Of a stretch of DNA of 64,000 nucleotides, positions 6,658-23,345 are shown piece by piece (the first letter of the stretch is position 1; each line of letters starts with the position of its first letter). This DNA comes from Escherichia coli (lineage in GTDB: Bacteria > Pseudomonadota > Gammaproteobacteria > Enterobacterales > Enterobacteriaceae): assembly GCF_011045215.1 (NCBI RefSeq), contig NZ_CP049201.1. One strand, 5' to 3'. The notes below the pieces were generated by a model. That model ran no database searches. It was not told where the DNA came from and was given only the letters and a program-made list of their open reading frames with translations. Made by a program: the position numbers and the translations under genes.

Positions 6658-7707
6658 GTGCGGGTATTACTTCGACCTGTTCTGGTACCGGAACTCGGGC
6701 TGGTGGTCGTTAAGCCGGGCCGTGAATCCATGCCGGTATTCCACAATACCCGGGTACTGGTGGAGCCGGAACCGAAAAGCATGCGTAATCTGCCGTCCGG
6801 GATCGTTCCTGCCGTTCGCCAGCCGCTGGTGGAAGACAAAACATTGCTGCCGTTTTTCAGTAATGCACGGGTAATTCGTGCTGCTGGTGGTGCTGGTGCA
6901 TTGTCTGACTGGCTGTTGCGCCATATTAAATCCTGCCAGTGGCCACACGGCGATTATCATCACAGCGAAACCGTTATTCACCGTTATGGTACCGGCGCAA
7001 TGGTGTTGTGCTGGCACTGCGACAACCAGCTGCGTGACCAGACATCCGAATCACTCGAGCAACTTGCTCATCAAAACCTGTCAGCATGGATGATTGACGT
7101 CATCGGTCACGCAATAAGCGGTACGCAGGAGCGTGAATTATCTCTGGCTGAATTATCCTGGTGGGCGGTCCGCAATCAGGTGGCGGACGCGCTACCGGAA
7201 GCGGTATTACGTCGTTCGCTGGGGTTGCGTGCGGAAAAAATCCGCTCCATGTACCGTGAAAGCGACATCGTACCGGGAGAGCAGACCGCCACCAGCATAC
7301 TGAAACAGCGCACAAAAAATCTTGCGCCGCTGCCTCACGCCCACCAGCAACAGAACCCACCACAGGAAAAGACGGTGGTCAGCATTGCCGTTGATCCTGA
7401 GTCTCCGGAATCTTTCATGAAACGACCTAAACGTCGCCGCTGGGTTAATGAAAAGTACACGCGCTGGGTTAAGACACAGCCGTGTGCATGTTGTGGAAAG
7501 CCCGCTGATGATCCCCACCACCTGATAGGCCACGGTCAGGGGGGAATGGGTACAAAAGCGCATGACCTCTTTGTGTTGCCTTTGTGCAGAAAGCATCACG
7601 ACGAGCTGCATGCGGATACCGTGGCATTTGAAGAGAAGTATGGCTCCCAGCTGGAGCTGATATTTCGTTTTATCGATCGTGCGCTGGCAATTGGCGTGCT
7701 GGCCTGA
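6658..7707 (+). CDS. ydfU: DUF968-family prophage protein (YdfU-like), 349 aa
   Basis: C-terminal CACCGKPADDPHHL...CRKHHDELH zinc-binding-like motifs as recalled for YdfU/DUF968; position before Q as in Qin. Confidence 0.7.
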   Translation: MRVLLRPVLVPELGLVVVKPGRESMPVFHNTRVLVEPEPKSMRNLPSGIVPAVRQPLVEDKTLLPFFSNARVIRAAGGAGALSDWLLRHIKSCQWPHGDYHHSETVIHRYGTGAMVLCWHCDNQLRDQTSESLEQLAHQNLSAWMIDVIGHAISGTQERELSLAELSWWAVRNQVADALPEAVLRRSLGLRAEKIRSMYRESDIVPGEQTATSILKQRTKNLAPLPHAHQQQNPPQEKTVVSIAVDPESPESFMKRPKRRRWVNEKYTRWVKTQPCACCGKPADDPHHLIGHGQGGMGTKAHDLFVLPLCRKHHDELHADTVAFEEKYGSQLELIFRFIDRALAIGVLA

Positions 7708-7709
7708 TT

Positions 7710-8069
7710 TTGTGGAGAAAGTTGATGCGTGATATGTATGAAGTTTTAGACCGCTGGGGAGCGTGGGCTGCAGCAGATAACAGTGGTGTGGACTGGCAGC
7801 CGATAGCAGCAGGCTTTAAGGGGCTTTTACCTCATGGTAAAAAAATACGCCTTCAGTGTGATGATGATGAAGGCATCATGATAGACGGCTGTGTTGCCCG
7901 CCTGTGTAAGTATAAACCAGACGAATATGAGCTGATCATTGCTCACTTCGTTATAGGTATTTCACTGCGTTCTATTGCGAAGAGACGCAGATGCTCAGAT
8001 GGAACAATCCGGAAGCAATTGCAGACTGCGTTAGGTTTCATTAATGGGGTTATGTACATGCTCAAGTAA
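7710..8069 (+). CDS. Phage antitermination protein Q-like, 119 aa
   Basis: Small basic protein with Cys cluster and C-terminal HTH-like segment (IAHFVIGISLRSIAKRRRCSDGTIRKQL), at the canonical Q position upstream of the lysis cassette. Confidence 0.6.
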   Translation: MWRKLMRDMYEVLDRWGAWAAADNSGVDWQPIAAGFKGLLPHGKKIRLQCDDDEGIMIDGCVARLCKYKPDEYELIIAHFVIGISLRSIAKRRRCSDGTIRKQLQTALGFINGVMYMLK

Positions 8070-9288
8070 TATTTGGCATTAATTTAAATAAAATACCGAT
8101 GATGCCTATGAATGTAGGCATCCATGCTAGTGATAATAAACTGTCAAGCACCTTATGACAAAAATCCTCATTGTCATTTAATTTTTTAATAGCCTCTTCT
8201 AAGCTCTCTTTAAGATCGCTGGTGTCATCCTTTATTCTATATCTTAATTGTCCAAAAAGTATTTCTTTAGAGTGTGAAATACGAGCAAGTTGTTTTTTTT
8301 GTGACACAATCATTGCAGATGTTATTATTGCTGTGATAATCAATCCAATTAAAGCAATAATCCAATCAGCTTTTGTTGTTAATTTGAAAATAGCAATTGA
8401 ACCAGCTAGTGAAATAGGTATTGCAAGAGCTTTGTTAGAAATTTCTGAAATTATTTTTGACAGTTTTTCTGAGTAATCGAGTTCAGCATCAACAACTTCT
8501 TTCCTTGCTTTATGAAAAGAAAATGCCGATATATAAGCAGCTAAGTTGTTCGTATAAAGTTCGCATATGAAATCCCACTTGTTAATTAACTCGACAAAGG
8601 AATTTCCATTTTTATTAACATACTCAATAACTGTGTTTCTGAAAGTGTTAATCTTTTCAATGTGATGGGCATCAGTAGTAGCTTCACTACTTACTAATGT
8701 TTTAACTAACTGAGTATTTACTGTTTTATCATTAAAAATTTCTTCTGTAATATTTGTTTCAATTACAGCAGAAGAAGATTTAGACTCTGAGTTTAAAATA
8801 AAGACTAAACGATAAAATGTACCTTTGCTATCTTTTTTTATATCATGGAAATGAGCAAGCATGGAAAGAGCATTGATTAGCTCACAAATGTCCTCAATTT
8901 TTTGGATATAAGAAGGTTTTGGTGTTTCTAATGAATAGAAATCATCCTCTATAATATAGAAATACTCTGGCATTATGCCTTTCTTGAGCGTGTTTATTTT
9001 TACAAACTCGTTTTTATTTTTATAAAAACGATTCGCACTTCCTTGTGAAATTTTAAACGAGTATGTAAGAAAATTTCCCTTTTCAGGAAAGTCTTCATAA
9101 TCATAAATTAAATGACCATCCACCTCTATTTCGTCAGCTGTACCAGCTTGAAAAGTAGGGTTCAAAATTCTTTTGAACAATGATTTTACGTCTGCATTAT
9201 AAGCTATACGCGCAGAAAACTTAGCCCCGTCAAAATGAGGATAGCTTGATAATCTATACAGATTAACTATTATACTAAAATCATTCAT
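8062..9288 (-). CDS. Membrane protein, 408 aa, three predicted TM helices in C-terminal third; candidate effector of two-gene cassette
   Basis: ATG overlaps upstream gene stop (ATGA at 9285..9288); hydrophobic helices (ALAIPISLAGSIAIFKL, WIIALIGLIITAIITSAMIV, LLSLAWMPTFIGIIGILFKLM); AT-rich codon usage. Confidence 0.7.
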   Translation of the reverse strand: MNDFSIIVNLYRLSSYPHFDGAKFSARIAYNADVKSLFKRILNPTFQAGTADEIEVDGHLIYDYEDFPEKGNFLTYSFKISQGSANRFYKNKNEFVKINTLKKGIMPEYFYIIEDDFYSLETPKPSYIQKIEDICELINALSMLAHFHDIKKDSKGTFYRLVFILNSESKSSSAVIETNITEEIFNDKTVNTQLVKTLVSSEATTDAHHIEKINTFRNTVIEYVNKNGNSFVELINKWDFICELYTNNLAAYISAFSFHKARKEVVDAELDYSEKLSKIISEISNKALAIPISLAGSIAIFKLTTKADWIIALIGLIITAIITSAMIVSQKKQLARISHSKEILFGQLRYRIKDDTSDLKESLEEAIKKLNDNEDFCHKVLDSLLSLAWMPTFIGIIGILFKLMPNIT

Positions 9289-10451
9289 TCTTTATCTTCT
9301 TCATTACTCGGGTTATCAGTTTCTTTCAACGCTCTTCTTATCTTAGTTAATGCTTCAACAGGCAAATTATTAAATGTTAGGCTTTGGTTTTCGTCATCAT
9401 AATATATTTTAGCATCAGTTGTGACACCGAGTAAATCCTTGTCGAAGTGAAAGCTCAATGATGGGGTTTTATATATCACATTGCGGATTTTATCTAAGGA
9501 GTTTTTATTGATTACGAACTCTGATGGGATTCTGACTTCCTCACTATTGAGGTGTTTCATTAATTTATCAACAAGTTCTGTTTTTTCTTCCTCTTTTAAA
9601 TAGGACATATGGCCTGAAGCAAGCGATTCGATATCAGAAAGCCTTGCAGAGTGCTCGTTGTCAAATTGCTTTTCTAAGTATTTGATAACATCATTTCTAA
9701 ATGACTCTGCTTGATTTTTTAAAAGAGGTTCTTTCTTAAAGAAACGCCTTATTTCATCTGGTAACTTACGGGTTGCGCCTGCTGAAGCAATCCCCTTGTC
9801 ACATCCTAATGCTGCTATAAAATATGCTGCCGCTGACTGTCCCGTAGTTTTGCTTATAAAGCTTAGATAACTTAAGTCTGTTTTTTTTAAATCATCTGCT
9901 TTTTGGTATTCTTCATAATATCTGAAATTTATTTTTGCTGCTTGGTTAATATTACCAAGTTCTAAGTGAATCATTTCCTCTGGCTCTAAATTTTCACTAA
10001 TAGTTACGCCATTAGTTTTTTTGATCATTGTAACCAATAGATAACGGAAACCAGATAAAATATAATCAGTAAAAACAACATATCCTCCAGAAGCCCAAAT
10101 CTGCTCTTGAGCAGATTTATACATTTGTTTCATAACTTCCTTCGATAATTCAATGAAATCATTTGAAACAGATTGTTGAACTAAAGAGTATTTATGAAAT
10201 AGTTCTGGTATAGGGCCTTGTTTTGTTTTATTTTTAATAAAAACACCATAATGCGCTGAGTTCCCTTTTGAACCATACAAATCAATAACACCGTCTACTA
10301 ATTTTTTTACTATATCATTTGTTTTATCTAGTTCTGTATCACGAAGATTGTATGGTTTGGAGTGATCGAAGTCTTTATTAGATTCTTTTAAGAGCTCATG
10401 AACGATTACGTGGCGTATGCTTGCTTTGCTCATTTTTTTGGTCAATTCCAT
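9285..10451 (-). CDS. NdpA/YejK-like (NA37 family) nucleoid-associated-protein homologue, 388 aa; candidate sensor of two-gene cassette
   Basis: Motif-level resemblance to recalled E. coli YejK: N-terminal IRHVIVHELLK, central GGYVVFTDY...YLLVTMIK...ISENLEP, YLSFISKTTGQSAAAYF, C-terminal SLTFNNLP. AT-rich (~30% G+C in a 60-nt spot check). Confidence 0.75.
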   Translation of the reverse strand: MELTKKMSKASIRHVIVHELLKESNKDFDHSKPYNLRDTELDKTNDIVKKLVDGVIDLYGSKGNSAHYGVFIKNKTKQGPIPELFHKYSLVQQSVSNDFIELSKEVMKQMYKSAQEQIWASGGYVVFTDYILSGFRYLLVTMIKKTNGVTISENLEPEEMIHLELGNINQAAKINFRYYEEYQKADDLKKTDLSYLSFISKTTGQSAAAYFIAALGCDKGIASAGATRKLPDEIRRFFKKEPLLKNQAESFRNDVIKYLEKQFDNEHSARLSDIESLASGHMSYLKEEEKTELVDKLMKHLNSEEVRIPSEFVINKNSLDKIRNVIYKTPSLSFHFDKDLLGVTTDAKIYYDDENQSLTFNNLPVEALTKIRRALKETDNPSNEEDKE

Positions 10452-10551
10452 GCGGTTAAGCTAACAATTGTAAAGAGCATAATAAATTACTAACGCGTAC
10501 GCAAAAACTATCATAATCTGTTAAGAGTGGTTACTTCGCCACACAGCTTAA

Positions 10552-10580
10552 ACCCGCCGTCGAGCGGTTTTTTTGTACCT
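10552..10580 (+). terminator. Candidate late-operon terminator (tR'-like) preceded by candidate late promoter
   Basis: Short GC hairpin cccgccgtcgagcgg followed by ttttttt; upstream TTACTA-N18-TCATAAT promoter-like hexamers at ~10489..10522. Confidence 0.35.
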
Positions 10581-10672
10581 GTAAAACTGGTGCAGTACAG
10601 TAAACACGCTGGTGGTCGTGAATACTGACTTTTTATCTTGCTGGCTTTTTAGACAAGAGTTATTGGTATGTC

Positions 10673-10900
10673 ATGTTAACCAGAAGGGAAAAAGACATGC
10701 TAAAACAGCAAGATATGACAGAAACCGCCGCCGCAGTCCTTCATTTCTTACCTGCTGACAAGTGGGTAACGCCACGCATGATGACGAGAACTACCGGAGT
10801 AAGCGAAGCCCGGTGCCAGTTAATACTGACTCAGTTAGTTCTGGCGGGTCTGGCGAAGGATAACGGCGGGTACGGGAATAAATTCAGACGCTGCCAGTAA
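10673..10900 (+). CDS. Hypothetical small protein, 75 aa (possible winged-helix)
   Basis: ORF first in the late operon; no motif assigned. Confidence 0.4.
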   Translation: MLTRREKDMLKQQDMTETAAAVLHFLPADKWVTPRMMTRTTGVSEARCQLILTQLVLAGLAKDNGGYGNKFRRCQ

Positions 10901-11050
10901 TGGCGGTTTCCTGCTGTGAAAATGGGCGGCTGGTGGGTGTTGGTAGCACCTGCCAGCCATTCGCTCATGCTTACTGGTCACAAGCGAACCACGGCCCACT
11001 GCTTTAGCGCAAAAGCAGAGTGAGCCTACCAGAGTTACGCTTACTGATCC

Positions 11051-12103
11051 ATGAAAAATACTGTAAAAATAAACAGTGTTGATTTAATCAACGCTGATTG
11101 CCTGCATTTTATTCAGTCCTTGCCTGATGATTCCATTGATCTGATTGTTACCGATCCGCCGTACTTCAAAGTGAAGCCCAACGGCTGGGACAATCAGTGG
11201 AAAGGGGACGAAGATTACCTGAAGTGGCTGGACTACTGTCTGGCCCAGTTCTGGCGGGTACTGAAACCAGCCGGAAGCCTTTACCTGTTCTGTGGACATC
11301 GCCTGGCATCTGATATTGAGATCATGATGCGTGAACGTTTCAACGTGCTTAACCATATCATCTGGGCGAAGCCGTCCGGACGTTGGAATGGGTGTAATAA
11401 AGAAAGTCTGCGCGCATATTTTCCTGCCACAGAGCGCGTTCTGTTTGCTGAACATTACCAGGGGCCATATCGCGGCAAAAGTGACGGCTATGCGGCAAAA
11501 GAAAGGGAACTCAAACAGCACATAATGGCACCGCTGATATCGTATTTCAGGGATGCTCGTGCCGAACTGGGTATAACGGCAAAACAAATTGCCGAAGCCA
11601 CAGGTAAGAAAAATATGGTTTCCCACTGGTTTGGTGCCAGTCAGTGGCAGTTGCCGAATGAGGCTGACTATCGGAAGTTACAGGCACTGTTTTCCCGTAT
11701 AGCGGCAGAGAAGTTTCAGGAACAACAACTGGAACAACCACACCACCAGCTGGTGGCATCTTATGATTCACTGAATCGCAAATATTCTGAATTGCTGGAT
11801 GAGTTTAAATCTCTCCGGCGCTATTTCTCCGTATCAGTCTCCGTGCCTTATACCGATGTCTGGATGCATAAACCCGTTCAGTTCTACCCGGGTAAACATC
11901 CGTGTGAGAAACCTGCGGATATGCTCCGGCAAATAATCAATGCCAGTAGTCGACCTGGTGATCTGGTTGCTGATTTTTTTATGGGATCCGGTTCCACAAT
12001 AAAAGCAGCAATGGCGCTGGGGCGTCGGGCCTTAGGTGTTGAGCTTGAGTCAGAGCGGTTTAACCAGACAGTGAAAGAGATATACGAGCTGGTGGGGAAA
12101 TAA
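11051..12103 (+). CDS. Orphan DNA N6-adenine/N4-cytosine methyltransferase (beta class)
   Basis: Catalytic DPPY motif near N-terminus (LIVTDPPYF) and AdoMet-binding FxGxG near C-terminus (DFFMGSGST); no cognate endonuclease gene adjacent. Confidence 0.85.
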   Translation: MKNTVKINSVDLINADCLHFIQSLPDDSIDLIVTDPPYFKVKPNGWDNQWKGDEDYLKWLDYCLAQFWRVLKPAGSLYLFCGHRLASDIEIMMRERFNVLNHIIWAKPSGRWNGCNKESLRAYFPATERVLFAEHYQGPYRGKSDGYAAKERELKQHIMAPLISYFRDARAELGITAKQIAEATGKKNMVSHWFGASQWQLPNEADYRKLQALFSRIAAEKFQEQQLEQPHHQLVASYDSLNRKYSELLDEFKSLRRYFSVSVSVPYTDVWMHKPVQFYPGKHPCEKPADMLRQIINASSRPGDLVADFFMGSGSTIKAAMALGRRALGVELESERFNQTVKEIYELVGK

Positions 12104-12109
12104 TCTGGT

Positions 12110-12133
12110 GGCCACGTAGGTGGCCTTTTTATT
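12110..12133 (+). terminator. Hairpin plus T-tract after methylase gene
   Basis: ggccac-gtag-gtggcc followed by tttttattt. Confidence 0.45.
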
Positions 12134-12169
12134 TCCATTACACAGCACCCGCATCTGCGAGGTGGGGTT

Positions 12170-12385
12170 ATGAAATCCATGGATAAGTTAACAACGGGTG
12201 TCGCCTATGGCACCTCAGCAGGTAGTGCCGGGTACTGGTTTTTACAGTTGCTCGATAAAGTCACGCCCTCACAGTGGGCGGCAATAGGTGTGCTGGGTAG
12301 TCTGGTATTTGGCTTGCTGACGTATCTGACAAACCTTTATTTCAAGATTAAAGAAGATAAGCGTAAGGCTGCGAGAGGTGAATAA
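12170..12385 (+). CDS. Class II pinholin (phage 21 S-like), 71 aa with dual start MKSM
   Basis: Translation [71 protein letters not shown] matches recalled S21. Confidence 0.8.
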
Positions 12386-12882
12386 TGTCGCCATCATTAC
12401 GCAAGGCTGTTGCTGCTGCTATTGGTGGTGGGGCTGTTGCCATAGCGTCTGTGCTCATCACTGGTCCGAGTGGTGACGATGGCCTGGAAGGTGTCAGCTA
12501 CATACCATACAAAGATATCGTTGGCGTATGGACTGTATGTCACGGACACACCGGAAAAGACATCATGCTAGGTAAAACGTATACCGAAGCAGAATGCAAA
12601 GCCCTCCTGAATAAAGACCTTGCCACGGTCGCCAGACAAATTAACCCGTACATCAAAGTCGATATACCGGAAACAACGCGCGGCGCTCTTTACTCGTTCG
12701 TCTACAACGTGGGTGCTGGCAATTTCAGAACATCGACGCTTCTTCGCAAAATAAACCAGGGCGATATCAAAGGCGCATGTGACCAGCTACGTCGCTGGAC
12801 ATACGCTGGCGGTAAGCAATGGAAAGGCCTGATGACTCGTCGTGAGATTGAGCGTGAAGTCTGTTTGTGGGGGCAACAATGA
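12385..12882 (+). CDS. SAR endolysin (lysozyme, phage 21 R-like)
   Basis: N-terminal Gly/Ala-rich SAR domain ([20 protein letters not shown]); lysozyme-family core; ATGA overlap with holin stop. Confidence 0.85.
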
Positions 12883-13346
12883 GCAGAGTAACCGCGATTA
12901 TCTCCGCTCTGGTTATCTGCATCATCGTCTGCCTGTCGTGGGCGGTCAATCATTACCGTGATAACGCCATCGCCTACAAAGAACAGCGAGATAAAAAAGT
13001 CAGTGAGCTGAAGCAGGCGACCGCCACCATCGCTGACATGCAGCAGCGTCAGCGTGATGTTGCTGCGATCGATGCAAAATACACGAAGGAGTTAGCCGAT
13101 GCGAAAACTGAAAATGAAACTCTGCGCGCTGATGTTGCCGCTGGTCGTAAGCGCCTGCGGGTCAATGCCAGTTGCTCCGCAGCCGTGCGTGAAGCCACCG
13201 GACCCACCAGCATGGATAATGCAACCAGCCCCCGACTGGCAGACACCGCTGAACGGGATTATTTCATCCTCAGAGAACGGTTGATGACGATGCAGAAGCA
13301 ACTGGAAGGGGCGCAGGAATATATCCGCACCCAGCGCATTAAGTAG
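12867..13346 (+). CDS. i-spanin Rz
   Basis: N-terminal TM segment then coiled-coil-like sequence; overlaps endolysin end; Rz1 embedded in +1 frame. Confidence 0.75.
13099..13284 (+). CDS. o-spanin Rz1 (lipoprotein), embedded in Rz
   Basis: Lipobox LVVSAC followed by Pro-rich mature region. Confidence 0.7.
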
Positions 13347-13367
13347 CTGGAGAAAAAACACGAATCT

Positions 13368-13730
13368 GTGGTTTTTACTGAGCGCGGTGTACACGGTGGA
13401 ACATATGGCGGGAAGTTTGTTGCTTATGATTATGCAGCATGGCTAAACCCCGGATTTAAATATGCAGCCTATAAAGTCCTGGATGACTACTTCACCGGAG
13501 AACTTCAGCATCGCAACAGCTTAAGTGCGCAGCTCAATATGAAGTGTCATGAGTTTGATCAGAAAAAAGATATGGCGAGCTTCTGTGGACAAGGGCTGGC
13601 GGCATGGCGCTATACGAAGCCAGTGTTGGTCGCTGAGATTAACTCCCTGGCTAACCAGCTGCAGATAACGATCCCCGGGCTGTCCGGTATTTGCCGGTAT
13701 GAAATTACCGGAAGGCGCGGTCGTTACTGA
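13368..13730 (+). CDS. KilA-N-domain-like protein or remnant (GTG start)
   Basis: Translation FTERGVHGGTYGGKFVAYDYAAWLNPGFKYAAYKVLDDYF resembles KilA-N domain; non-ATG start, same frame as Rz. Confidence 0.35.
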   Translation: MVFTERGVHGGTYGGKFVAYDYAAWLNPGFKYAAYKVLDDYFTGELQHRNSLSAQLNMKCHEFDQKKDMASFCGQGLAAWRYTKPVLVAEINSLANQLQITIPGLSGICRYEITGRRGRY

Positions 13731-13959
13731 GTAACAGCAGGCATTACAGCAGCCCTTCACTGAGGGGCTGCGATAATGTGAGGAATAAAAAACCGGCAGG
13801 GGAAATCCATTGAAGATTTGCCGGTGGCAAAAGATGGCCATGCTTTTAACCTTAGTAGCAGAGTTACGGAGTTCAACAACGACCGTCGCCGTTATCTTGC
13901 TGAAAGGCGTTTCAATGATTTTCATCAATTTATTCATCAGCAATGGTGATAATCACTCT

Positions 13960-14100
13960 CATTTTGGCGGGTCCTTCCGGTGGGGTGGCCTGCCACGGGG
14001 CGGGAGCGTCGCGGAAAAAGGCTAGTTTTTGAAATTTCATTCGTCATCACCACCACTGTAATAGATTGATATTACAGTGGTTTTATTTTTATGGTGTCGA
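13960..14100. promoter_or_regulatory. Candidate cos (cohesive-end) region upstream of small terminase
   Basis: GC-rich block gggtggcctgccacggggcgggagcgtcgcgg, then AT-rich DNA with 11-bp inverted repeat ccactgtaata/tattacagtgg (14053..14080); resembles recalled lambda cos layout. Confidence 0.3.
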
Positions 14101-14184
14101 TTTTGATTGTTTTTTTGTTCACCACTAACACCGTTTGCCTAAAGTTGTTCGCAAGATGCATGTTTAAAACATTCTGGAGCGGGT

Positions 14185-14679
14185 ATGGATCGAGAGTTAA
14201 AAAATCTGACGCTGAATATCAGTCAACTGGCGGCACTGTCAGGTGTACATCGCCAGACTGCTGCGGCAAGGCTGCAAAATCTACCCGTTGCAGGGGGGCA
14301 TGAAAGCAACCTCAAGCTTTATCGGGTGGTTGATATTGTGTCGGCATTTCTGGCATTGCCACCGCCGGTTGCAGAAGGCGAAATGGACGCGCATGAGCGC
14401 AAAGCCTGGTATCAGTCTGAACGTGAGCGTCTTAAGTTCGAACAGGAAACGGCACAACTCATTCCGGCCAGTGATGTCAGACGGGAGTTTGCCATCTGGG
14501 CAAAAGCGGTCGTGCAGGTGCTGGAGACATTACCGGATATTCTGGAACGTGACTGCGGTCTGCAGCCTGCCGCTGTGAGCCGTGTTCAGTCCATTATTGA
14601 TGATCTGCGCGATCAGATAGCCCTGCGGGTGACTGAAGCAGGTGCGGATGATGAGGAGGAATTACAGCAGGAGGAGTAA
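14185..14679 (+). CDS. Terminase small subunit
   Basis: N-terminal HTH-like segment (LNISQLAALSGVHRQTAAARL), acidic C-terminus, immediately upstream of large terminase with overlapping stop/start. Confidence 0.7.
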   Translation: MDRELKNLTLNISQLAALSGVHRQTAAARLQNLPVAGGHESNLKLYRVVDIVSAFLALPPPVAEGEMDAHERKAWYQSERERLKFEQETAQLIPASDVRREFAIWAKAVVQVLETLPDILERDCGLQPAAVSRVQSIIDDLRDQIALRVTEAGADDEEELQQEE

Positions 14680-16781
14680 TGCTGAATCAGGAAACCGCAA
14701 AGGCAGCACGAACCGATTCAGGTTATATCCTTCGCGCACCGAGACGAATGCGGGTTGCTGATGCCGTTGCTCAGTATATGCGGGTGCCCATGGGGGCAGG
14801 GAACTCAGTCCCGTGGGATCCGCTGGTGGCACCGTATGTTATTGAGCCGATGAACTGCCTGGCCTCGCGTGAATACGACGCAGTGATATTTGTTGGCCCG
14901 GCACGAACCGGCAAGACTATCGGCCTGATTGACGGCTGGGTGATTTACAACGTGATTTGCGATCCTGCTGATATGCTGATCATTCAGATGACGGAGGAAA
15001 AAGCCCGCGAACACTCCAAAAAACGACTCGCCAGAACGTTTCGCGTCAGCCCGGAAGTGGTCAGTCGCCTGAGTCCGAACAAAAATGACAACAACGTTTA
15101 TGACAGAACATTCCTTGCTGGTAACTACCTGAAAATCGGCTGGCCGTCAGTCAATATCATGTCCTCATCAGATTATAAATGCGTCGCGCTGACGGATTAT
15201 GACCGTTTTCCGGAAGATATTGATGGCGAGGGGGATGCTTTCTCTCTTGCCTCAAAACGTACCACCACATTTATGTCCAGCGGTATGACGCTGGTGGAGA
15301 GTTCCCCCGGCAGGGATGTGAAGGATGTGAAATGGCGACGGACTTCACCGCATGAGGCTCCACCAACCACGGGGATCCTGTCGCTCTATAACCGTGGTGA
15401 TCGCCGTCGCTGGTACTGGCCCTGTCCACACTGTGGTGAGTATTTTCAGCCCTGCGGCGATGTGGTTGCTGGTTTCCGTGATATTGCCGATCCCGTGCTG
15501 GCAAGTGAGGCGGCTTATATTCAGTGTCCTTCCTGTTCAGGACGGATTATGCCTGAACAAAAACGTGAGCTGAACGGACGTGGGGTCTGGTTGCGGGATG
15601 GTGAATCCATCAATGCGGATGGCAGTCGTTATGGTGATCCCCGACGCTCACGTATTGCGTCATTCTGGATGGAGGGTCCGGCAGCTGCTTACCAGACACT
15701 CTCGCAACTCGTTTACAAACTGCTTACTGCAGAACAGGAATACGAGACAACCGGAAGTGAAGAAACACTCAAGACGGTTATCAATACCGACTGGGGATTA
15801 CCTTATCTTCCCCGCGCCAGCATGGAGCAACGAAAAAGTGAACTGCTTGAGCAGCGGGCAGAGCCAGTTCCTTCCCGCAGTGTGCCGGATGGCGTTAATT
15901 TCCTTGTGGCGACAGTGGATGTGCAGGCGGGACGTCATCGCCGTTTTGTGGTTCAGGTAACGGGCTATGGCAGCCGTGGCGAACGCTGGATTATTGATCG
16001 TTACAACATCACGCAGTCATTGCGCGGTGACAGCGACGGGGAGAGCCAGCGAATTGATCCGGCCAGCTATCCGGAAGACTGGGATGTCCTGCTGACGGAT
16101 GTTTTTCATAAAAGCTGGCCGCTGGCCTCCGATCCTTCTCAACAAATGCGACTGATGGCAATGGCGGTGGACTCCGGCGGTGAAGACGGGGTCACTGATA
16201 ATGCCTATAAATTCTGGCGTCGTTGCCGTCGTGATGGCCTTGGTAAACGTATTTACCTGTTTAAGGGCGACAGCATCCGGCGCGCAAAACTGATCACCCG
16301 TACATTCCCTGATAACACCGGACGAACGGGCCGACGGGCGCAGGCCGCAGGTGATGTGCCGCTCTGGCTTCTTCAGACGGATGCACTGAAAGACCGGGTG
16401 AATAACGCGTTATGGCGTGACTCGCCAGGTCCCGGCTATGTGCATTTCCCTGACTGGCTGGGGAGCTGGTTTTACGACGAACTGACGTATGAAGAGCGGA
16501 GCAGTGACGGGAAATGGAGTAAGCCGGGTCGCGGTGCCAACGAAGCTTTTGACCTGATGGTGTATGCCGAGGCTCTGGTCATTCTGCATGGATACGAAAA
16601 GATCCGCTGGCCGGATGCACCGGAGTGGGCGAGCCGGGAAACCTGGCTGGAGTGTGTCCCGGACAGTACCGAACCGTCATCCTCACCGGAACCGGTATCC
16701 ACGCCTGTTAAAAAACAAAAACGGAAGAAAACAGTAACTGACGATGTTAACCCCTGGCTGACTTCCGGAGGATGGTTATGA
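14679..16781 (+). CDS. Terminase large subunit (GpA-like), 700 aa
   Basis: Walker A-like VGPARTGKT; size and position typical of lambda gpA family. Confidence 0.85.
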   Translation: MLNQETAKAARTDSGYILRAPRRMRVADAVAQYMRVPMGAGNSVPWDPLVAPYVIEPMNCLASREYDAVIFVGPARTGKTIGLIDGWVIYNVICDPADMLIIQMTEEKAREHSKKRLARTFRVSPEVVSRLSPNKNDNNVYDRTFLAGNYLKIGWPSVNIMSSSDYKCVALTDYDRFPEDIDGEGDAFSLASKRTTTFMSSGMTLVESSPGRDVKDVKWRRTSPHEAPPTTGILSLYNRGDRRRWYWPCPHCGEYFQPCGDVVAGFRDIADPVLASEAAYIQCPSCSGRIMPEQKRELNGRGVWLRDGESINADGSRYGDPRRSRIASFWMEGPAAAYQTLSQLVYKLLTAEQEYETTGSEETLKTVINTDWGLPYLPRASMEQRKSELLEQRAEPVPSRSVPDGVNFLVATVDVQAGRHRRFVVQVTGYGSRGERWIIDRYNITQSLRGDSDGESQRIDPASYPEDWDVLLTDVFHKSWPLASDPSQQMRLMAMAVDSGGEDGVTDNAYKFWRRCRRDGLGKRIYLFKGDSIRRAKLITRTFPDNTGRTGRRAQAAGDVPLWLLQTDALKDRVNNALWRDSPGPGYVHFPDWLGSWFYDELTYEERSSDGKWSKPGRGANEAFDLMVYAEALVILHGYEKIRWPDAPEWASRETWLECVPDSTEPSSSPEPVSTPVKKQKRKKTVTDDVNPWLTSGGWL

Positions 16782-16990
16782 ACCAGAATGATATCGAAGC
16801 CATGATTCAGCGTTATACGGAAGCTGAAATGGCGGTGCTGGACGGAAAATCCGTCACCTTTAATGGTCAGCAGATGACCATGGAAAACTTATCTGAGATC
16901 CGGCAGGGACGGCAGGAGTGGGAGCGCCGCCTTGCGGCTCTGATTACACGACGACGGGGGCATCCCGGGTATCGGCTGGCGAGGTTCTGA
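16772..16990 (+). CDS. Head-tail joining protein (gpW-like), 72 aa
   Basis: Small ORF between terminase and portal as lambda W; C-terminal RRRGHPGY resembles lambda W tail. Confidence 0.5.
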   Translation: MVMNQNDIEAMIQRYTEAEMAVLDGKSVTFNGQQMTMENLSEIRQGRQEWERRLAALITRRRGHPGYRLARF

Positions 16991-18498
16991 TGGCAATTCT
17001 TGATGATGTGATTGGCGTTTTTTCACCAGGATGGAAAGCGGCAAGGCTGCGTTCCCGTGCGGTGATCCAGGCTTATGAGGCCGTAAAAACGACGCGGACA
17101 CACAAAGCCCGACGGGAGAACCGAACTGCCGACCAGTTAAGCCAGTACGGGGCCGTGTCGTTACGTGAGCAGGCCCGTTACCTTGATAACAACCACGATC
17201 TGGTTATTGGTGTATTTGACAAGCTGGAAGAACGGGTGGTGGGGAAAAACGGGATTATTGTCGAGCCACATCCGGTATTACGCAATGGGGCCATTGCCCG
17301 TGACCTGGCTGCGGAGATTCGCACCCGATGGAGTGAATGGTCTGTCAGCCCGGAAGTCACCGGGCAGTTTACCCGTCCGATGCTGGAACGTCTGATGCTT
17401 CGTACCTGGCTGCGCGATGGTGAGGTGTTTGCCCAGATGGTTTCCGGGCGCATAAACAGCCTGACGCCTTCTGCCGGTGTTCATTTCTGGCTGGAGGCGC
17501 TCGAGCCGGACTTTATTCCCATGACCAGTGATGAGAGCAACAGGCTGAATCAGGGCGTGTTTGTTGATGACTGGGGGCGTCCCGAAAAATATCTGGTGTA
17601 TAAAAGCCGTCCCGTATCCGGACGGCAGATGGAAACCAAAGAAGTGGATGCAGAGCGAATGCTGCATCTTAAATTTGTTCGCCGTCTGCACCAGATGCGC
17701 GGGACGTCTTTATTGTCCGGTGTGCTGATCCGCCTCAGTGCCCTGAAAGAGTATGAAGATTCTGAGCTGACTGCAGCAAGGATCGCCGCCGCTCTGGGGA
17801 TGTACATCCGGAAAGGCGACGGGCAGAGCTATGAAGCGGATGGTAATGGCAGCAAGGATAAGGAACGCGAGCTTACCATTCAGCCAGGCATTATTTACGA
17901 TGATCTGAAACCCGGCGAAGAAATCGGAATGGTGAAGTCGGATCGCCCAAATCCTAACCTTGAAACTTTTCGTAATGGTCAGTTGCGTGCCGTGGCGGCG
18001 GGCAGTCGTCTGAGTTTTTCCAGTACAGCGCGCAACTATAACGGCACTTACAGCGCCCAGCGTCAGGAGCTGGTTGAATCCACTGATGGCTACCTGATCC
18101 TGCAGGACTGGTTTATTGGTGCCGTCACCCGTCCGATGTATCGTGCCTGGCTGAAACAGGCTGTGGCATCCGGTGTTATCAGGCTACCCCGCGATCTTGA
18201 CCTTTCTTCACTGTATACCGCGGTGTATTCCGGACCGGTGATGCCGTGGATTGACCCTGTTAAGGAGGCTGAGGCCTGGAAAATCCAGATTCGTGGTGGA
18301 GCGGCGACAGAATCAGACTGGGTACGTGCTGGTGGTCGTAATCCGGATGATGTCAAACGTCGGCGCAAGGCCGAAATTGATGAAAACCGCAAGCTGGATC
18401 TGGTATTTGATACCGATCCGGCCAGTGATAAAGGAGGCAGCAGTGCCGCAACGAAACGACAGGAGCCGCAGCACACCGACGACCAGTCCGAAGAATAA
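16990..18498 (+). CDS. Portal protein
   Basis: ATG at 16990 overlaps gpW stop (ATGA); ~500 aa, position after terminase and W. Confidence 0.8.
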   Translation: MAILDDVIGVFSPGWKAARLRSRAVIQAYEAVKTTRTHKARRENRTADQLSQYGAVSLREQARYLDNNHDLVIGVFDKLEERVVGKNGIIVEPHPVLRNGAIARDLAAEIRTRWSEWSVSPEVTGQFTRPMLERLMLRTWLRDGEVFAQMVSGRINSLTPSAGVHFWLEALEPDFIPMTSDESNRLNQGVFVDDWGRPEKYLVYKSRPVSGRQMETKEVDAERMLHLKFVRRLHQMRGTSLLSGVLIRLSALKEYEDSELTAARIAAALGMYIRKGDGQSYEADGNGSKDKERELTIQPGIIYDDLKPGEEIGMVKSDRPNPNLETFRNGQLRAVAAGSRLSFSSTARNYNGTYSAQRQELVESTDGYLILQDWFIGAVTRPMYRAWLKQAVASGVIRLPRDLDLSSLYTAVYSGPVMPWIDPVKEAEAWKIQIRGGAATESDWVRAGGRNPDDVKRRRKAEIDENRKLDLVFDTDPASDKGGSSAATKRQEPQHTDDQSEE

Positions 18499-18511
18499 TT
18501 CCTGGTTCAGG

Positions 18512-20470
18512 ATGCAGGCTGGTCACCAGAGTGACGCGGATATTTATATTTATGACGAGATTGGTTTCTGGGGTGTTACAGCGAAGCAGTTTATCAGTGA
18601 TCTGAATGCACTGGGCGATATCACCCATATTAATCTCCATATTAATTCACCGGGTGGCGATGTCTTTGAAGGCATCGCCATTTTTAATGCACTGAAAACA
18701 CATGGTGCGTCCATTACCGTTTATGTCGACGGTGTGGCGGCGTCAATGGCGTCGGTCATTGCGATGGTGGGAAACCCGGTCATTATGCCGGAAAACACCT
18801 TCATGATGATTCATAAACCATTTGGCTTTACGGGCGGTGATGCGGAGGACATGCGCACCTATGCCGACCTGCTCGATAAAGTTGAGGCGGTTCTGTTACC
18901 CGCTTATGCACAGAAAACCGGGAAAACCACCGATGAAATTGCTGCCATGCTGGCGGATGAGACCTGGATGTCCGGTGCCGAATGTCTGGCACATGGATTT
19001 GCTGATCAGGTAACGCCAGCCGTTAAGGCAATGGCATGTATTCAGTCAAAACGTACAGAGGAATTTAAAAAGATGCCGGAATCCATTCGAAACATGATTA
19101 CTCCGCCACGCAACAGTGCTCCACGCGTACAGGATAATGAACCTGAAGCCTCCCGGACGCCAGTGCAGGCAGCAGCACCCGTGGTGGATGAAAACAGCAT
19201 CCGTGCGCAGGTACTGGCAGAGCAAAAAGCGCGTGTAAACGGTATTAATGATCTGTTTGCCATGTTTGGCGGGCGTTATCAGACGCTGCAGGCTCAGTGT
19301 CTTGCCGATCCTGAATGTTCGCTGGAGCAGGCCCGCGAAAAGCTGTTGAACGAGATGGGGCGCGAGTCCACGCCATCCAATAAAAATACCCCGGCTCATA
19401 TTTATGCCGGTAACGGTAATTTTGTGGGGGACGGGATCCGCCAGGCGCTGATGGCGCGTGCCGGATTTGAAAAAACCGAACGTGATAATGTCTACAACGG
19501 GATGACCCTGCGTGAATATGCCCGTATGTCACTGACTGAACGGGGTATTGGGGTTTCCAGTTATAACCCGATGCAGATGGTCGGTGCGGCGTTCACACAC
19601 AGTACGTCTGACTTCGGTAATATTCTGCTGGATGTTGCGAACAAAGCCATTCTGCAGGGCTGGGAAGATGCCCCTGAAACCTATGAACAGTGGACGCGGA
19701 AAGGTCAGTTGTCTGATTTTAAAATTGCCCATCGTGTGGGTATGGGGGGCTTCAGTGCTCTGCGTCAGGTGCGTGAAGGGGCGGAATATAAATACGTCAC
19801 CACCGGAGATAAACAGGCCACTATTGCACTGGCGACCTATGGCGAGCTGTTCAGTATCACCCGTCAGGCCATTATCAATGATGATCTGAATATGCTGACC
19901 GATGTCCCGATGAAACTGGGCCGTGCGGCGAAATCCACTATTGCCGATCTGGTTTATGCCATTCTGACGTCTAACCCGAAAATCTCCACAGATAATGTAA
20001 GTCTGTTCGATAAAGCGAAACATGCAAACGTACTGGAGAGCGCTGCAATGGACGTGGCATCGCTGGATAAAGCCCGCCAGTTGATGCGCGTTCAGAAAGA
20101 GGGGGAGCGTCATCTGAATATTCGTCCTGCGTTCGTACTGGTACCGACGGCGATGGAGTCTGTTGCTAACCAGGTCATTCGCTCCTCAAGTGTCAAGGGG
20201 GCTGACATTAACGCCGGTATTATTAACCCGGTGAAAGATTTTGCGACCGTTATTGCAGAGCCTCGTCTTGATGATAACAGCCAGACCACCTTCTACCTGG
20301 CTGCGTCAAAAGGCTCCGATACGATTGAAGTGGCTTATCTCAACGGTGTGGATACGCCATATATTGATCAGATGGAGGGCTTCAGTGTGGATGGCGTGAC
20401 AACGAAAGTGCGTATTGACGCCGGTGTCGCGCCAGTTGATCACCGCGGTCTGGTGAAATGTACGGCGTAA
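18512..20470 (+). CDS. Prohead protease (ClpP/S49-like) fused to major capsid protein (Gifsy-2-type head)
   Basis: N-terminal ClpP-like region (IYIYDEIGFWGV...INSPGGDVFEGIAIFNAL...MASVIAMVGN) continuous with ~450 aa capsid-like region. Confidence 0.75.
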   Translation: MQAGHQSDADIYIYDEIGFWGVTAKQFISDLNALGDITHINLHINSPGGDVFEGIAIFNALKTHGASITVYVDGVAASMASVIAMVGNPVIMPENTFMMIHKPFGFTGGDAEDMRTYADLLDKVEAVLLPAYAQKTGKTTDEIAAMLADETWMSGAECLAHGFADQVTPAVKAMACIQSKRTEEFKKMPESIRNMITPPRNSAPRVQDNEPEASRTPVQAAAPVVDENSIRAQVLAEQKARVNGINDLFAMFGGRYQTLQAQCLADPECSLEQAREKLLNEMGRESTPSNKNTPAHIYAGNGNFVGDGIRQALMARAGFEKTERDNVYNGMTLREYARMSLTERGIGVSSYNPMQMVGAAFTHSTSDFGNILLDVANKAILQGWEDAPETYEQWTRKGQLSDFKIAHRVGMGGFSALRQVREGAEYKYVTTGDKQATIALATYGELFSITRQAIINDDLNMLTDVPMKLGRAAKSTIADLVYAILTSNPKISTDNVSLFDKAKHANVLESAAMDVASLDKARQLMRVQKEGERHLNIRPAFVLVPTAMESVANQVIRSSSVKGADINAGIINPVKDFATVIAEPRLDDNSQTTFYLAASKGSDTIEVAYLNGVDTPYIDQMEGFSVDGVTTKVRIDAGVAPVDHRGLVKCTA

Positions 20471-20493
20471 ACGTCGCAGACAACAACTCTGAT

Positions 20494-20514
20494 GGCCCGT
20501 AAGGGCTTTTTTTG
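20494..20514 (+). terminator. Weak hairpin plus T-tract after capsid gene (partial terminator)
   Basis: gccc-gtaa-gggc followed by ttttttt; second hairpin 20525..20543. Confidence 0.35.
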
Positions 20515-20556
20515 TACCTGAAATCAGCCCCTGAACGGGGCTGTGCGGAGACAGTT

Positions 20557-20880
20557 ATGGCAAAGAATTTTGTAGAAGAAGGAAAAACGGTGGCGATTGT
20601 TGCCAGTGCAGCCATCAGCAGCGGAGATCTGGTGCAGGTGGGTGATGTTTTTGCGGTGGCGCTGACCGATATTCCACAGGGTGAAACAGGCGACGGCATG
20701 ACCGAAGGTGTGTTTATCCTGCCTAAACTGAAAACGGATGACATGAAAACGGGTAAGAAGGTTTATCTGAAGTCCGGAAAAGTTCAGCTGACTAACAGCG
20801 GCTCTGATCCGCTGGTCGGGGTTGTCTGGGCAGATGCCGGAACCAGTGCAGAAGAAGTGCCGGTAAAACTCAATGTCTGA
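20557..20880 (+). CDS. Head decoration/cement-like protein (DUF2190-like)
   Basis: ATG at 20557 with GGAG upstream; small protein after capsid gene. Confidence 0.5.
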   Translation: MAKNFVEEGKTVAIVASAAISSGDLVQVGDVFAVALTDIPQGETGDGMTEGVFILPKLKTDDMKTGKKVYLKSGKVQLTNSGSDPLVGVVWADAGTSAEEVPVKLNV

Positions 20881-21148
20881 TCCCTTTTCCCGGCTGGCAG
20901 CGCGTATGGATGCGATCACGGTCAGAAAGATGGGAAAGACAGCCTCGATTAATGATGTCGATATGACTGTGATCCCGGGAGAAACACTGGCAGAGCTGAA
21001 TGCTCTGTCCGGACCTGCGGTCTCTCTGGTGGTGTTTTCTTCGGGATACCGCCCACGGCGCGGGGATCGCGTTGTTTATGACGGACAACATTGGACGGTC
21101 ACACGGCATGAACGCTTTAACGGTAAGCCAATGATCTTTATTGAGTAA
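20873..21148 (+). CDS. Head completion/head-tail joining protein (FII-position)
   Basis: Position and size; overlaps previous gene end. Confidence 0.45.
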   Translation: MSDPFSRLAARMDAITVRKMGKTASINDVDMTVIPGETLAELNALSGPAVSLVVFSSGYRPRRGDRVVYDGQHWTVTRHERFNGKPMIFIE

Positions 21149-21159
21149 AGAGGTGTGGG

Positions 21160-21738
21160 ATGAAGGGGCTTGAGAATGCCATCCGCAATCTGAACAGCCT
21201 TGATACCCGTATGGTGCCACAGGCCAGCGCATGGGCGATAAACCGTGTGGCACAGAAAGCGGTCTCGGTTGCCACCCGGCAGGTTGCCGGGAATACCGTT
21301 GCGGGAGATAACCAGGTGAAAGGGATACCCCTGAAACTGGTACGTCAGCGTGTCCGGGTGTTTAAAGCCAGTCCGTCAGGAAAAATGACGGCCAGGATCC
21401 GCGTTAACCGGGGCAATCTGCCTGCCATTAAGCTGGGGACCGCCCGGGTCAGACTGACCCGACGTGGTGGAAAACTGCAGTACCGTGGCAGCGTGCTGAA
21501 GGTGGGTAAATATCTTTTCCGGGATGCGTTTATTCAGCAACTGGCGAATGGTCGCTGGCATGTGATGCGGCGTATTGATGGCAAAAATCGTTACCCCATT
21601 GATGTGGTGAAAATCCCTCTGTCCGGACCGCTGACACAGGCATTTGAAGATGCCCGCGACCGCATCATTGCTGCGGAAATGCCGAAACAGCTGGGGTATG
21701 CACTGAAACAACAACTGAGGTTATGGCTGACCCGATGA
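21160..21738 (+). CDS. Tail completion protein (lambda Z-like), 192 aa
   Basis: Same length and position as lambda Z, immediately before U. Confidence 0.5.
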   Translation: MKGLENAIRNLNSLDTRMVPQASAWAINRVAQKAVSVATRQVAGNTVAGDNQVKGIPLKLVRQRVRVFKASPSGKMTARIRVNRGNLPAIKLGTARVRLTRRGGKLQYRGSVLKVGKYLFRDAFIQQLANGRWHVMRRIDGKNRYPIDVVKIPLSGPLTQAFEDARDRIIAAEMPKQLGYALKQQLRLWLTR

Positions 21739-22136
21739 ACCGACATACACAAATCCGCCAGGTCGTACTGGCACGCCTTCGGGAACAGTGTGGAGACAGC
21801 GCCACGTTTTTTGACGGGCTTCCGGCATTTGTTGATGCGCAGGAACTGCCTGCCGTGGCGGTGTGGCTGAGTGATGCTCAGTACACCGGAAAAATGACGG
21901 ATGACGATGACTGGCAGGCTGTTCTGCATATTGCTGTCTTCATCCGGGCACAGGCACCGGATTCAGAGCTGGATATGTGGATGGAGAGCACCATTTTCCC
22001 GGCCCTGAATGATGTACCGGCACTTTCCGGACTCATCGACACCCTGATCCCACTCGGTTTTAACTATCAACGTGATAATGAGATGGCCACCTGGGCGATG
22101 GCGGAAATCACGTACCAGATCACGTACACGAATTAA
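21723..22136 (+). CDS. Tail terminator protein (lambda U-like)
   Basis: Matches recalled lambda gpU: ATFFDG, ELPAVAV, AEYTG-like motif, DSELD.WMES, ITYQITY. Confidence 0.8.
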   Translation: MADPMNRHTQIRQVVLARLREQCGDSATFFDGLPAFVDAQELPAVAVWLSDAQYTGKMTDDDDWQAVLHIAVFIRAQAPDSELDMWMESTIFPALNDVPALSGLIDTLIPLGFNYQRDNEMATWAMAEITYQITYTN

Positions 22137-22146
22137 GGAGGTGGCA

Positions 22147-22890: not shown

Positions 22891-22901
22891 CAGGACGATA
22901 C

Positions 22902-22927
22902 TCATCATTTGCCCCGGTTATCCGGGG
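22902..22927 (+). terminator. Hairpin plus T-tract after major tail gene
   Basis: gccccgg-ttat-ccggggc followed by tttttt. Confidence 0.4.
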
Positions 22928-22947
22928 CTTTTTTGCAGGTGGAGAAC

Positions 22948-23337: not shown

Positions 23338-23345
23338 CGCGGGAA

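Follow-up and report, generated by a model that had tools for sequence, protein, structure and literature searches.

A probable lambda-like cos site with a variable inverted repeat in an mEp460/phi458-like prophage of Escherichia coli

In lambda, cosQ is the signal for packaging termination; lambda and phage 21 share a common cutting module and carry exchangeable recognition modules. The I2 segment also has a role in termination (PMC4669245), and in cosB of lambda the I1 site lies between R3 and R2 (PMC4669245, PMC9026076). The cosB of Gifsy-1 has the same layout of R3, IHF site, inverted R2 and R1 (PMC9026076), with three R sequences and one IHF site, and its cosN carries changes in the right half (Feiss; PMC4669245, PMC9026076). 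At the simple end stands N15, which has just one R site and lacks an IHF site (PMC4669245, PMC9026076). Putative cos sites with the sequence GGGCGGCGCGCT have been described in mEp213 and LLS (PMC12315714), and we confirmed this sequence in the mEp213 record.

We analysed a window of 64,000 nucleotides of the E. coli contig NZ_CP049201.1, in which a prophage of the mEp460/phi458/vB_EcoS-569R4 kind occupies about 7.4-40.4 kb. We conclude with high confidence that 13969-14184 is the cos site of this lambdoid prophage and functions in the manner of lambda cos; it fits the definition that Feiss gives of a lambda-like cos, an element of an already known kind, with Gifsy-type sites as its closest described relatives. 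The features are listed in Table 1. The locus resembles lambda in its identical cosQ heptamer, an I2-like segment, a same-strand IHF consensus between candidate R3 and R2, a terS gene about 190 nt from the cut, a gpA-family TerL and a lambda-family portal. It differs in that its cosB is unrelated to that of lambda beyond about +40, its IHF core lies at +62 to +74 rather than +79 to +91, its TerS belongs to DUF1441, and the predicted IHF site lies within a 12-bp inverted repeat. Gifsy-2 and Fels-1 have homologous TerS proteins (47.5% and 40.5% to that of the window, respectively), and Gifsy-2 carries R3-, R2- (inverted) and R1-like elements at nearly the same coordinates. Gifsy-2 departs from the window in its 12-mer, GGTGGCTTCGGG, in its cosQ region, which lacks GGGTCCT, in the strand of its IHF-like match and in having no counterpart of the inverted repeat. 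With N15-type simple cosB and PICI cos sites the window has the cosQ/cosN logic in common, but its long cosB, 188-nt leader and IHF consensus set it apart from N15. The closest sequences, those of mEp460, Ayreon, phi458 and vB_EcoS-569R4, have the same cosB type and a TerS that is 99-100% the same; they differ by point changes only, mainly in the repeat arms.

By analogy with lambda, TerS would use its N-terminal winged helix-turn-helix to bind cosB (about 14040-14130), and host IHF would bend the DNA at 14059-14071. The TerS-anchored gpA-type TerL would then nick cosN at 13997/13998 and 14009/14010, producing 12-nt 5' cohesive ends GGGCGGGAGCGT, and packaging would proceed rightward, into terS and the head genes. 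At the next cos, cosQ (13969-13975), cosN and the I2-like segment would signal the terminal cut. The inverted repeat would occupy the R3-to-R2 interval, with the IHF site at its centre and an R3-like element overlapped by its left arm. This reading fixes the probable genome ends and packaging direction for a very common prophage family, the cos element being present in 2147 of 5426 complete E. coli genomes (about 40%). It has little import beyond annotation. In the NCBI annotation the small terminase carries no label other than 'DUF1441 family protein', and several reference records were opened arbitrarily or mis-assembled at this point.

Table 1. Features of the cos region and its neighbourhood (window coordinates; signed positions count from the predicted cut, with 13998 as +1)
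Feature	Position	Strand	Basis or remark
Holin-like, lysozyme-like and Rz-like ORFs	12170-13346		Upstream of cos
Small ORF, ORF11CD3 domain	13368-13730		Upstream of cos
cosQ-like heptamer GGGTCCT	13969-13975	+	Identical to lambda heptamer
cosN, predicted 12-nt cohesive end GGGCGGGAGCGT	13998-14009	+	Lambda homology and genome record ends
I2-like conserved segment CGCGGAAAAAGGCTAGTTTTTG, between cosN and cosB	14010-14031	+	Conservation
Candidate R3, TCATCACCACCACTGTAA	14044-14061 (+47 to +64)	+	Position relative to lambda and Gifsy-2; overlaps left arm
Inverted repeat, 12 + 12 bp, 6-nt spacer	14052-14081	.	100% complementary
Repeat arms ACCACTGTAATA; TATTACAGTGGT	14052-14063; 14070-14081
Predicted IHF site (I1 equivalent), TATCAATCTATTA = WATCAANNNNTTR	14059-14071 (+62 to +74)	-	Consensus match
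T-tract TTTTATTTTT	14081-14090	+	A-tract on IHF-consensus strand; invariant in alignment
Candidate R2, ATGGTGTCGA (reverse complement TCGACACCAT)	14091-14100 (+94 to +103)	-	Inverted relative to R3 and R1
Candidate R1, TTCACCACTAAC	14118-14129 (+121 to +132)	+	Repeated 8-mer search
Conserved block AAAGTTGTTCGCAAGATGCATGTTTAAAA	14141-14169	+	Near-invariant across cosB groups A, B and C; just upstream of terS ribosome-binding site
terS, 164 aa	14185-14679	+	Pfam DUF1441, PHROG 141 'terminase small subunit'
terL, 700 aa	14679-16781	+	Pfam GpA_ATPase (E 8.7e-72), GpA_nuclease (E 1.1e-85)
terS, terL, head-tail adaptor, lambda-family portal, 739-aa ORF			Gene order downstream of cos

The probable cutting region and deposited genome ends

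A preliminary description of this DNA had pointed to a GC-rich block followed by AT-rich DNA with an inverted repeat about 100 bp before terS, and had proposed a candidate cos with a layout like that of lambda cosN and cosB. The block, gggtggcctgccacggggcgggagcgtcgcgg (13983-14014), is 84% GC, a value unmatched by any other 32-nt stretch in the 64-kb window (mean 49%), and the DNA after it is AT-rich as described (34.7% GC over 14015-14184; 32.8% over 14020-14135). The repeat is present and beyond chance, with one base more per arm than had been reported, and it ends 104 nt ahead of the terS ATG at 14185. The proposed order of cosN and cosB was borne out as well: the GC block holds cosN and aligns with both the lambda termini and the ends of deposited phage genomes, and the motor encoded downstream is of lambda type (gpA-family TerL, lambda-family portal, TerS with a winged helix-turn-helix). 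The position of the cut had not been placed in that description.

The alignment with the lambda termini extends from -52 to +40 and includes GGGTCCT and CG/GGGCGG......T/CGCGG, where slashes mark the nicks. Around the cut, lambda reads ...TTACG/GGGCGGCGACCT/CGCGG and the window ...CCACG/GGGCGGGAGCGT/CGCGG; over a longer stretch, ...ACGGGTCCTTTCCGGTGATCCGACAGGTTACG/GGGCGGCGACCT/CGCGG in lambda corresponds to ...GCGGGTCCTT-CCGGTGGGGTGGCCTGCCACG/GGGCGGGAGCGT/CGCGG in the window. The two 12-mers are identical at 8/12 positions, bases 1-6 being the same and bases 7, 8, 9 and 11 different, which is the pattern of variation known from natural lambda-like cosN sites (Feiss, PMC4669245). Similarity to lambda also covers about 20 nt on either side of the 12-mer, and CG dinucleotides flank both nick positions (CACG/GGG and CGT/CGCGG), as they do in lambda. 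The top-strand nick is most likely at 13997/13998 and the bottom-strand nick at 14009/14010. The overhang would be a 5' extension of 12 nt, a length that we infer from homology and the yong2 record only.

For an assessment of conservation, IMG/VR supplied 196 related loci, of which 118 are distinct in sequence; phage and E. coli records were compared separately. CACG precedes the cut in 117 of the 118 distinct loci, and 115 of them have GGGTCCT at a distance of 28-30 nt before the cut, although the DNA farther upstream is mosaic. The distance from cosQ to the cut is 22 nt in the window versus 23 nt in lambda; a decayed prophage copy in O157:H7 has cosQ mutated to GGCTCCT. On the other side of the cut, the I2-like segment is invariant in loci of three different cosB/terS types and recognisably alike in mEp213, yong2, Gifsy-2 and lambda, and the 34 nt from the cut to GGCTAGTTTTTG are common to at least three different cosB/terS types. 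By analogy with I2 of lambda, this segment may take part in termination (PMC4669245).

Five independent records of phage genomes (cdtI, Tritos, yong2, mEp460_4F5 and Ayreon) break at the cosN 12-mer. The record of phage cdtI (AB285204) starts with GGGCGGGAGCGT at +1, the equivalent of 13998, and ends with ...CTGCCACG; that of Tritos also starts at +1 with the same 12-mer. The record of Hafnia phage yong2, whose TerS has 57% identity to that of the window, starts at CGCGGGAAACGGCTAG, which is +13 (equivalent to 14010), and ends with ...GGGTCCT(23 nt)GGGGCAGCGACA, that is, just past a 12-nt block at the cosN position. The mEp460_4F5 record opens at -5, and 3 nt of its cosN are deleted. The Ayreon record is interrupted between +4 and +17 by a chimeric insert of about 150 nt, part of it from terS, a mis-join of the kind expected at physical DNA ends. 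The records of mEp460 and Ayreon were opened just before terS, so that cos is unmarked in them; their break at 14159/14160, within the conserved block of 14141-14169, was considered as an alternative terminus and rejected, as the published note on Ayreon states that the genome was opened there, in front of terS, arbitrarily and by convention.

These record ends are indirect evidence, and they may have been chosen by analogy with lambda. We found no experiment on this phage in the literature; a full-text search for the exact 12-mer GGGCGGGAGCGT returned unrelated mammalian papers only, and termini are not mentioned in the LF82 (Tritos) or infant-coliphage papers. Contig ends in IMG/VR are uninformative on termini because most of these contigs derive from prophages.

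Terminase genes and exchange of cosB modules

The terS and terL genes overlap by one base at 14679, and the terS start codon lies 188 nt from the cut in the window versus 191 nt in lambda. Farther downstream, the 739-aa ORF is a ClpP-like protease/major capsid fusion according to the annotation of a related E. coli genome. A dead relic, or headful (pac) packaging, is extremely improbable here. No support for such a reading was found; some copies elsewhere lie in decayed prophages. In the window, all three genes (terS, terL and portal) are uninterrupted ORFs, the plaque-forming phages Ayreon and vB_EcoS-569R4 encode a TerS that is 100% identical, the region 13700-14300 is 99.7% identical to phage phi458, and TerL is of the gpA cos type.

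TerS was analysed at the levels of structure, profile and sequence. A model of its N-terminal winged helix-turn-helix finds its best structural match in a solved DNA-binding domain of a lambda-like TerS (6hn7, PICI RppC study). BLASTP detected no pairwise similarity between TerS and lambda Nu1 (E = 20), the Pfam scan of TerS returned DUF1441 only and no Phage_Nu1, and a sequence search against PDB chains gave nothing meaningful, with a weak helix-turn-helix match for the profile of the N-terminal domain. Profile comparison aligned TerS residues 9-53 with Nu1 residues 2-48 (E 5e-4), the stretch that forms the winged helix-turn-helix of Nu1. TerS probably works like Nu1 but stands outside the Pfam Phage_Nu1 sequence family.

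Comparison with related phages disclosed which parts of the packaging system are held in common and which are exchanged. The cdtI, Tritos and HannyBb sequences are identical to the window from upstream of cosQ to +33, so that cosQ, cosN and I2 are common, and they have a perfect IHF consensus at +64, but they differ in cosB beyond +33 and in the TerS N-terminus; TerS of cdtI/Tritos is 42% identical overall. In cdtI and Tritos the C-terminal part of TerL is almost identical to that of the window (one substitution; in cdtI from about residue 380), while the N-terminal region is diverged. This type presumably represents a different packaging specificity. The TerS of PhiR40_1 is 99% identical over residues 61-154 and about 68% over residues 1-60, and its cosB differs from that of the window between about +32 and +138. 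The modular relationship is the same as that between lambda and phage 21. It offers a clean natural example of modular cos evolution, in which cosQ, cosN and the nuclease part of TerL are shared and cosB, the DNA-binding domain of TerS and the TerL N-terminus are swapped.

The IHF consensus and candidate TerS sites in cosB

The 64-kb window contains only 4 perfect matches to the IHF consensus, one of them at 14059-14071, where the minus strand reads TATCAATCTATTA. The invariant letters inside the repeat are TAA....TTGATA; the specified letters of the consensus are invariant or nearly so in the alignment, and the two most variable positions, 14063 and 14064, are among its four N positions. A perfect consensus stands at +62 in 117 of 122 loci of the largest window-type terS class, and another at +64, on the same strand and within unrelated flanks, in all cosB regions of the cdtI/Tritos type. 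With one mismatch it recurs in lambda, on the same strand, and in PhiR40_1-type relatives, and in Gifsy-2 an IHF-like match lies on the opposite strand. The conserved part of the repeat is the IHF consensus at its centre, which is likely an IHF binding site.

On the minus strand, an A-tract AAAAATAAAA is located 9 nt 5' of the IHF core. Its spacing resembles that of the A-tract in the lambda attP H' site, which is 8 nt. The corresponding T-tract is present in all three terS groups, with or without a hairpin.

Candidate TerS sites were assigned from their position. The R3 candidate at +47 to +64 corresponds to +50 to +65 in lambda and to the Gifsy-2 copy CAGCACTGAAAA at +53 to +64, and related copies of it occur at 14091-14100 (inverted) and 14118-14129. 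The equivalents of the first of these, the R2 candidate, are CAGTGTCGAA at +97 to +106 in Gifsy-2 and about +100 to +115 in lambda. The R1 candidate matches in position TTCGACACTGAA of Gifsy-2 (+122 to +133) and TTCGACATCGAA of PhiR40_1. Gifsy-2 clearly displays the full order: CAGCACTGAAAA (+53 to +64), then a core resembling an IHF site (+76 to +88), then TTTTCAGTGTCGAA in inverted orientation (+93 to +106) and last TTCGACACTGAA (+122 to +133). The window has CACCACTGTAA at +54 to +64, as the left repeat arm, followed by ATGGTGTCGA (inverted) and TTCACCACTAAC, and it is on account of this positional match that we read the elements of the window as R3-, R2- and R1-like. An earlier choice of TCATCAC (14044-14050) alone as R3 was dropped, and the element was widened to 14044-14061 after the Gifsy-2 comparison. 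By analogy, the layout is likely R3-I1-R2-R1, as in lambda and Gifsy. The candidate elements are short and degenerate, a CA(C/T)CAC motif recurs, and the right repeat arm is equally readable as R2.

The last point bears on the reading implied by the preliminary description, in which both repeat arms would form the primary TerS site, a dyad operator for a TerS dimer at the core of cosB. ACCACTGT occurs at +55 (+) and +77 (-), and the related ACCACTAA at +124 (+), in the arrow pattern of lambda R3, R2 and R1. In addition, the left arm matches the R3-like sequence of Gifsy-2 at 9/11 positions, and TerS has a winged helix-turn-helix domain. We nevertheless regard this reading as unlikely. Free variation in the arms is accompanied by no change in the first 70 residues of TerS, and the dyad is perfect in only 8 of 72 distinct loci. 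Assignment of the arms to R3 and R2 is less likely because their centres are 22 bp apart, leaving no room for an IHF U-turn whose consensus sits between them, and because the right arm has no counterpart in the cosB of Gifsy-2 or PhiR40_1-type phages; moreover, the element at 14091-14100 coincides in position with R2 in Gifsy-2 and nearly does so with R2 in lambda. With R2 at 14091-14100, the right arm would be an extra inverted copy of R3 in the IHF-wrapped interval, dispensable in related phages.

Variation of the inverted repeat

In single-stranded form, a 61-nt segment with the repeat folds well beyond expectation, with z of -5.2 and -5.6 on the two strands and none of 200 shuffles as good. 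The number of Watson-Crick pairs varies among the 72 distinct loci of the same cosB type: 12 pairs in 8 loci, 11 in 9, 10 in 29, 9 in 18 and 8 in 8. The perfect 12/12 repeat is one haplotype only. The repeat is limited to one cosB type; PhiR40_1-type and 7CC-type relatives, with homologous TerS and the same gene order, lack it and show no stable fold (z +0.9 and +1.1). Diversity peaks sharply at this place, with 15-30 haplotypes per 30-nt bin and pi of 0.07-0.09 over the 60 nt at 14043-14102; in the 400 nt that follow, there are 1-5 haplotypes per bin and pi is at most 0.02.

Nowhere in the region is variation greater than in the repeat arms, and compensatory covariation in the stem is not significant, with 92.2% of cells pairing versus 91.8% in shuffles. 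We therefore rejected the idea that the repeat acts mainly as a conserved hairpin of RNA or DNA; an Rfam scan of 13300-14700 at E <= 1 gave no match. Restriction to one cosB type, high variability and uncompensated variation speak against the repeat as such being the functional unit. Thus, of the preliminary description, the cosN/cosB layout stands, whereas the inverted repeat cannot serve as a conserved hallmark of cosB, being missing in functional relatives that have cosQ and cosN in common with the window and a homologous TerS, and most variable in its arms.

One explanation for the perfect repeat is that it serves no purpose of its own: unconstrained spacer DNA between constrained sites would hold a quasi-palindrome that template-switch mutation or short-tract conversion maintains and reshuffles. 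The diversity peak itself fits such a process, as do changes that are mostly transitions in many combinations, the concerted change of 14054-56 with 14091-93 and the unchanged first 70 TerS residues among the variants. On the other hand, CTGTAAT....ATTACAG at the core hardly varies, a fact for which the IHF consensus accounts in part only, and the covariation comes from one base pair, within the range given for unconstrained trees. We consider this explanation possible, though not the favoured one.

The repeat could also be a Rho-independent terminator, with the 12-bp stem on the + strand followed by UUUUAUUUUU, that stops read-through from the lysis/moron genes into the packaging genes unless RNA polymerase is modified by the Q antiterminator. 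The T-tract doubles as the U-run in this reading. The repeat is the sole terminator-like match in 13300-14700 (12 pairs, 4 of them G-C, tail TTTATTTTTA), the RNA fold of the 61-nt segment reaches -21.7 kcal/mol (z -5.2), many natural variants are G-U-compatible on the + strand, and one locus has a different GC hairpin ahead of the same T-tract. Yet shuffled sequence yields as many such sites (mean 1.4), stem variation is uncompensated, and the invariant letters fit the IHF consensus rather than the stem. Because the hairpin is not conserved (none is found in PhiR40_1-type or 7CC-type loci, which have the same gene order, or in cdtI/Tritos-type cos), the T-tract is kept with or without it and the IHF consensus matches, termination is a secondary possibility and, in our estimate, quite unlikely as the explanation of the repeat; a terminator may function in the window lineage, possibly alongside the cos function.

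Under the preferred reading of the locus as a lambda-like cos, one small oddity is left, the hypervariable patch in cosB. That this patch of 60 nt (14043-14102), which takes in the repeat arms and the R2-like edge, is a true hotspot in an otherwise frozen packaging signal, driven by palindrome-templated mutation or by selection for a changing cosB geometry, seems very unlikely to us. If it were true, R3-like and R2-like hexamers would be changing in concert while TerS stays constant, and selection could arise, for example, from conflict with cos-hijacking satellites (PICIs) or competing prophages. The concerted change at 14054-56 and 14091-93 is weak: CACTGC goes with GCAGTG and CACTAC with GTAGTG, the first 70 TerS residues remaining unchanged. 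Lying over the IHF site, the patch is usable for the study of quasi-palindrome mutation or of the tolerance of the cosB spacer.

Sequence variation in cosB

In the candidate cosB region, diversity rises to a sharp peak (window positions of this and other features are collected in the table), while the rest of cos and the terS leader are invariant. Among loci whose TerS is 99-100% identical, 15-30 haplotypes per 30 nt were counted within the peak versus 1-5 across the following 400 nt, and the variants are mainly transitions, combined in many ways. Two hexamers inside the peak, one in the R3-like and one in the R2-like element, vary in concert through three pairings. G at 14055 is accompanied by C at 14092 in 8 of 8 loci; the covariation score, which has a single base pair as its basis, was matched by 1 of 500 shuffles. 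TerS residues 1-70 are unchanged among these hexamer variants.

Adjoining the terS ribosome-binding site on its upstream side lies a block, AAAGTTGTTCGCAAGATGCATGTTTAAAA, that is nearly invariant among cosB types otherwise unlike each other. It contains the palindrome ATGCAT and could be an additional TerS site or a translational element.

Window positions of the features discussed
Feature	Position	Detail
Diversity peak	14043-14102	
R3-like hexamer	14051-14056	CACTGC; CACTAC; CACCAC
R2-like hexamer	14091-14096	GCAGTG; GTAGTG; (A/G)TGGTG, paired in the same order
Conserved block	14141-14169	
Second perfect IHF consensus	39798-39810	close to the right end (~40.4 kb) of the phage-like region
ORF with DPPY motif	11051-12103	350 aa; immediately upstream of the lysis genes

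The element order R3, IHF-like, R2 (inverted) and R1 is clear in Gifsy-2 (NC_010393, 17781-19054), where the R elements are composed of CACTGAA and TTCGACACTG repeats. The 12-mer at its cosN position, GGTGGCTTCGGG, is unlike that of lambda, and the cosQ heptamer GGGTCCT is absent from this Gifsy-2 cos region.

The second IHF consensus of the window, TATCAATAAATTA, is the identical 13-mer found in cosB of phages cdtI and Tritos, and may be part of an attachment-site region.

Genome records broken at cosN

Positions here are numbered from the predicted top-strand cut (13998 = +1). The linear record of Hafnia phage yong2 (MZ516527), whose cos is homologous to that of the window but differs in its 12-mer, opens with CGCGGGAAACGGCTAG, equivalent to +13, and ends with GGGTCCT, the next 23 nt and a last GGGGCAGCGACA. 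This start and this end indicate that the record was cut at the bottom-strand nick of the homologous cos. The record of phage Ayreon (MF807953, 44300-44708) carries a chimeric insert of ~150 nt within cosN, between the equivalents of +4 and +17, which contains a piece of Ayreon's own terS. The insert probably arose as an artefact when the physical ends were assembled, and it is crossed by an ORF that the record calls 'putative late gene regulator'.

Altered and replaced cos copies

In E. coli O157:H7 FRIK944 (NZ_CP016625, 960212-961814), cosQ is mutated to GGCTCCT, terS is frameshifted and terL has an internal stop; the cos signal is decaying along with the packaging genes. At the start of an IMG/VR contig (UViG_2778261085_000005), unrelated DNA takes the place, as far as the contig reaches upstream, of all sequence to the left of the T-tract, so that cosQ, cosN and the inverted repeat are all missing there. 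This DNA terminates in a GC-rich hairpin, CCTCCGGCTATGCCGGAGG, directly 5' of the same TTTATTTTT as in the window.

Elsewhere in the window, an ORF upstream of the lysis genes encodes DPPY, a motif characteristic of DNA methyltransferases that act on N6-adenine or N4-cytosine. A 'DNA adenine methylase' is annotated in related phage records, somewhere inside the stretch matching window 7390-25000.
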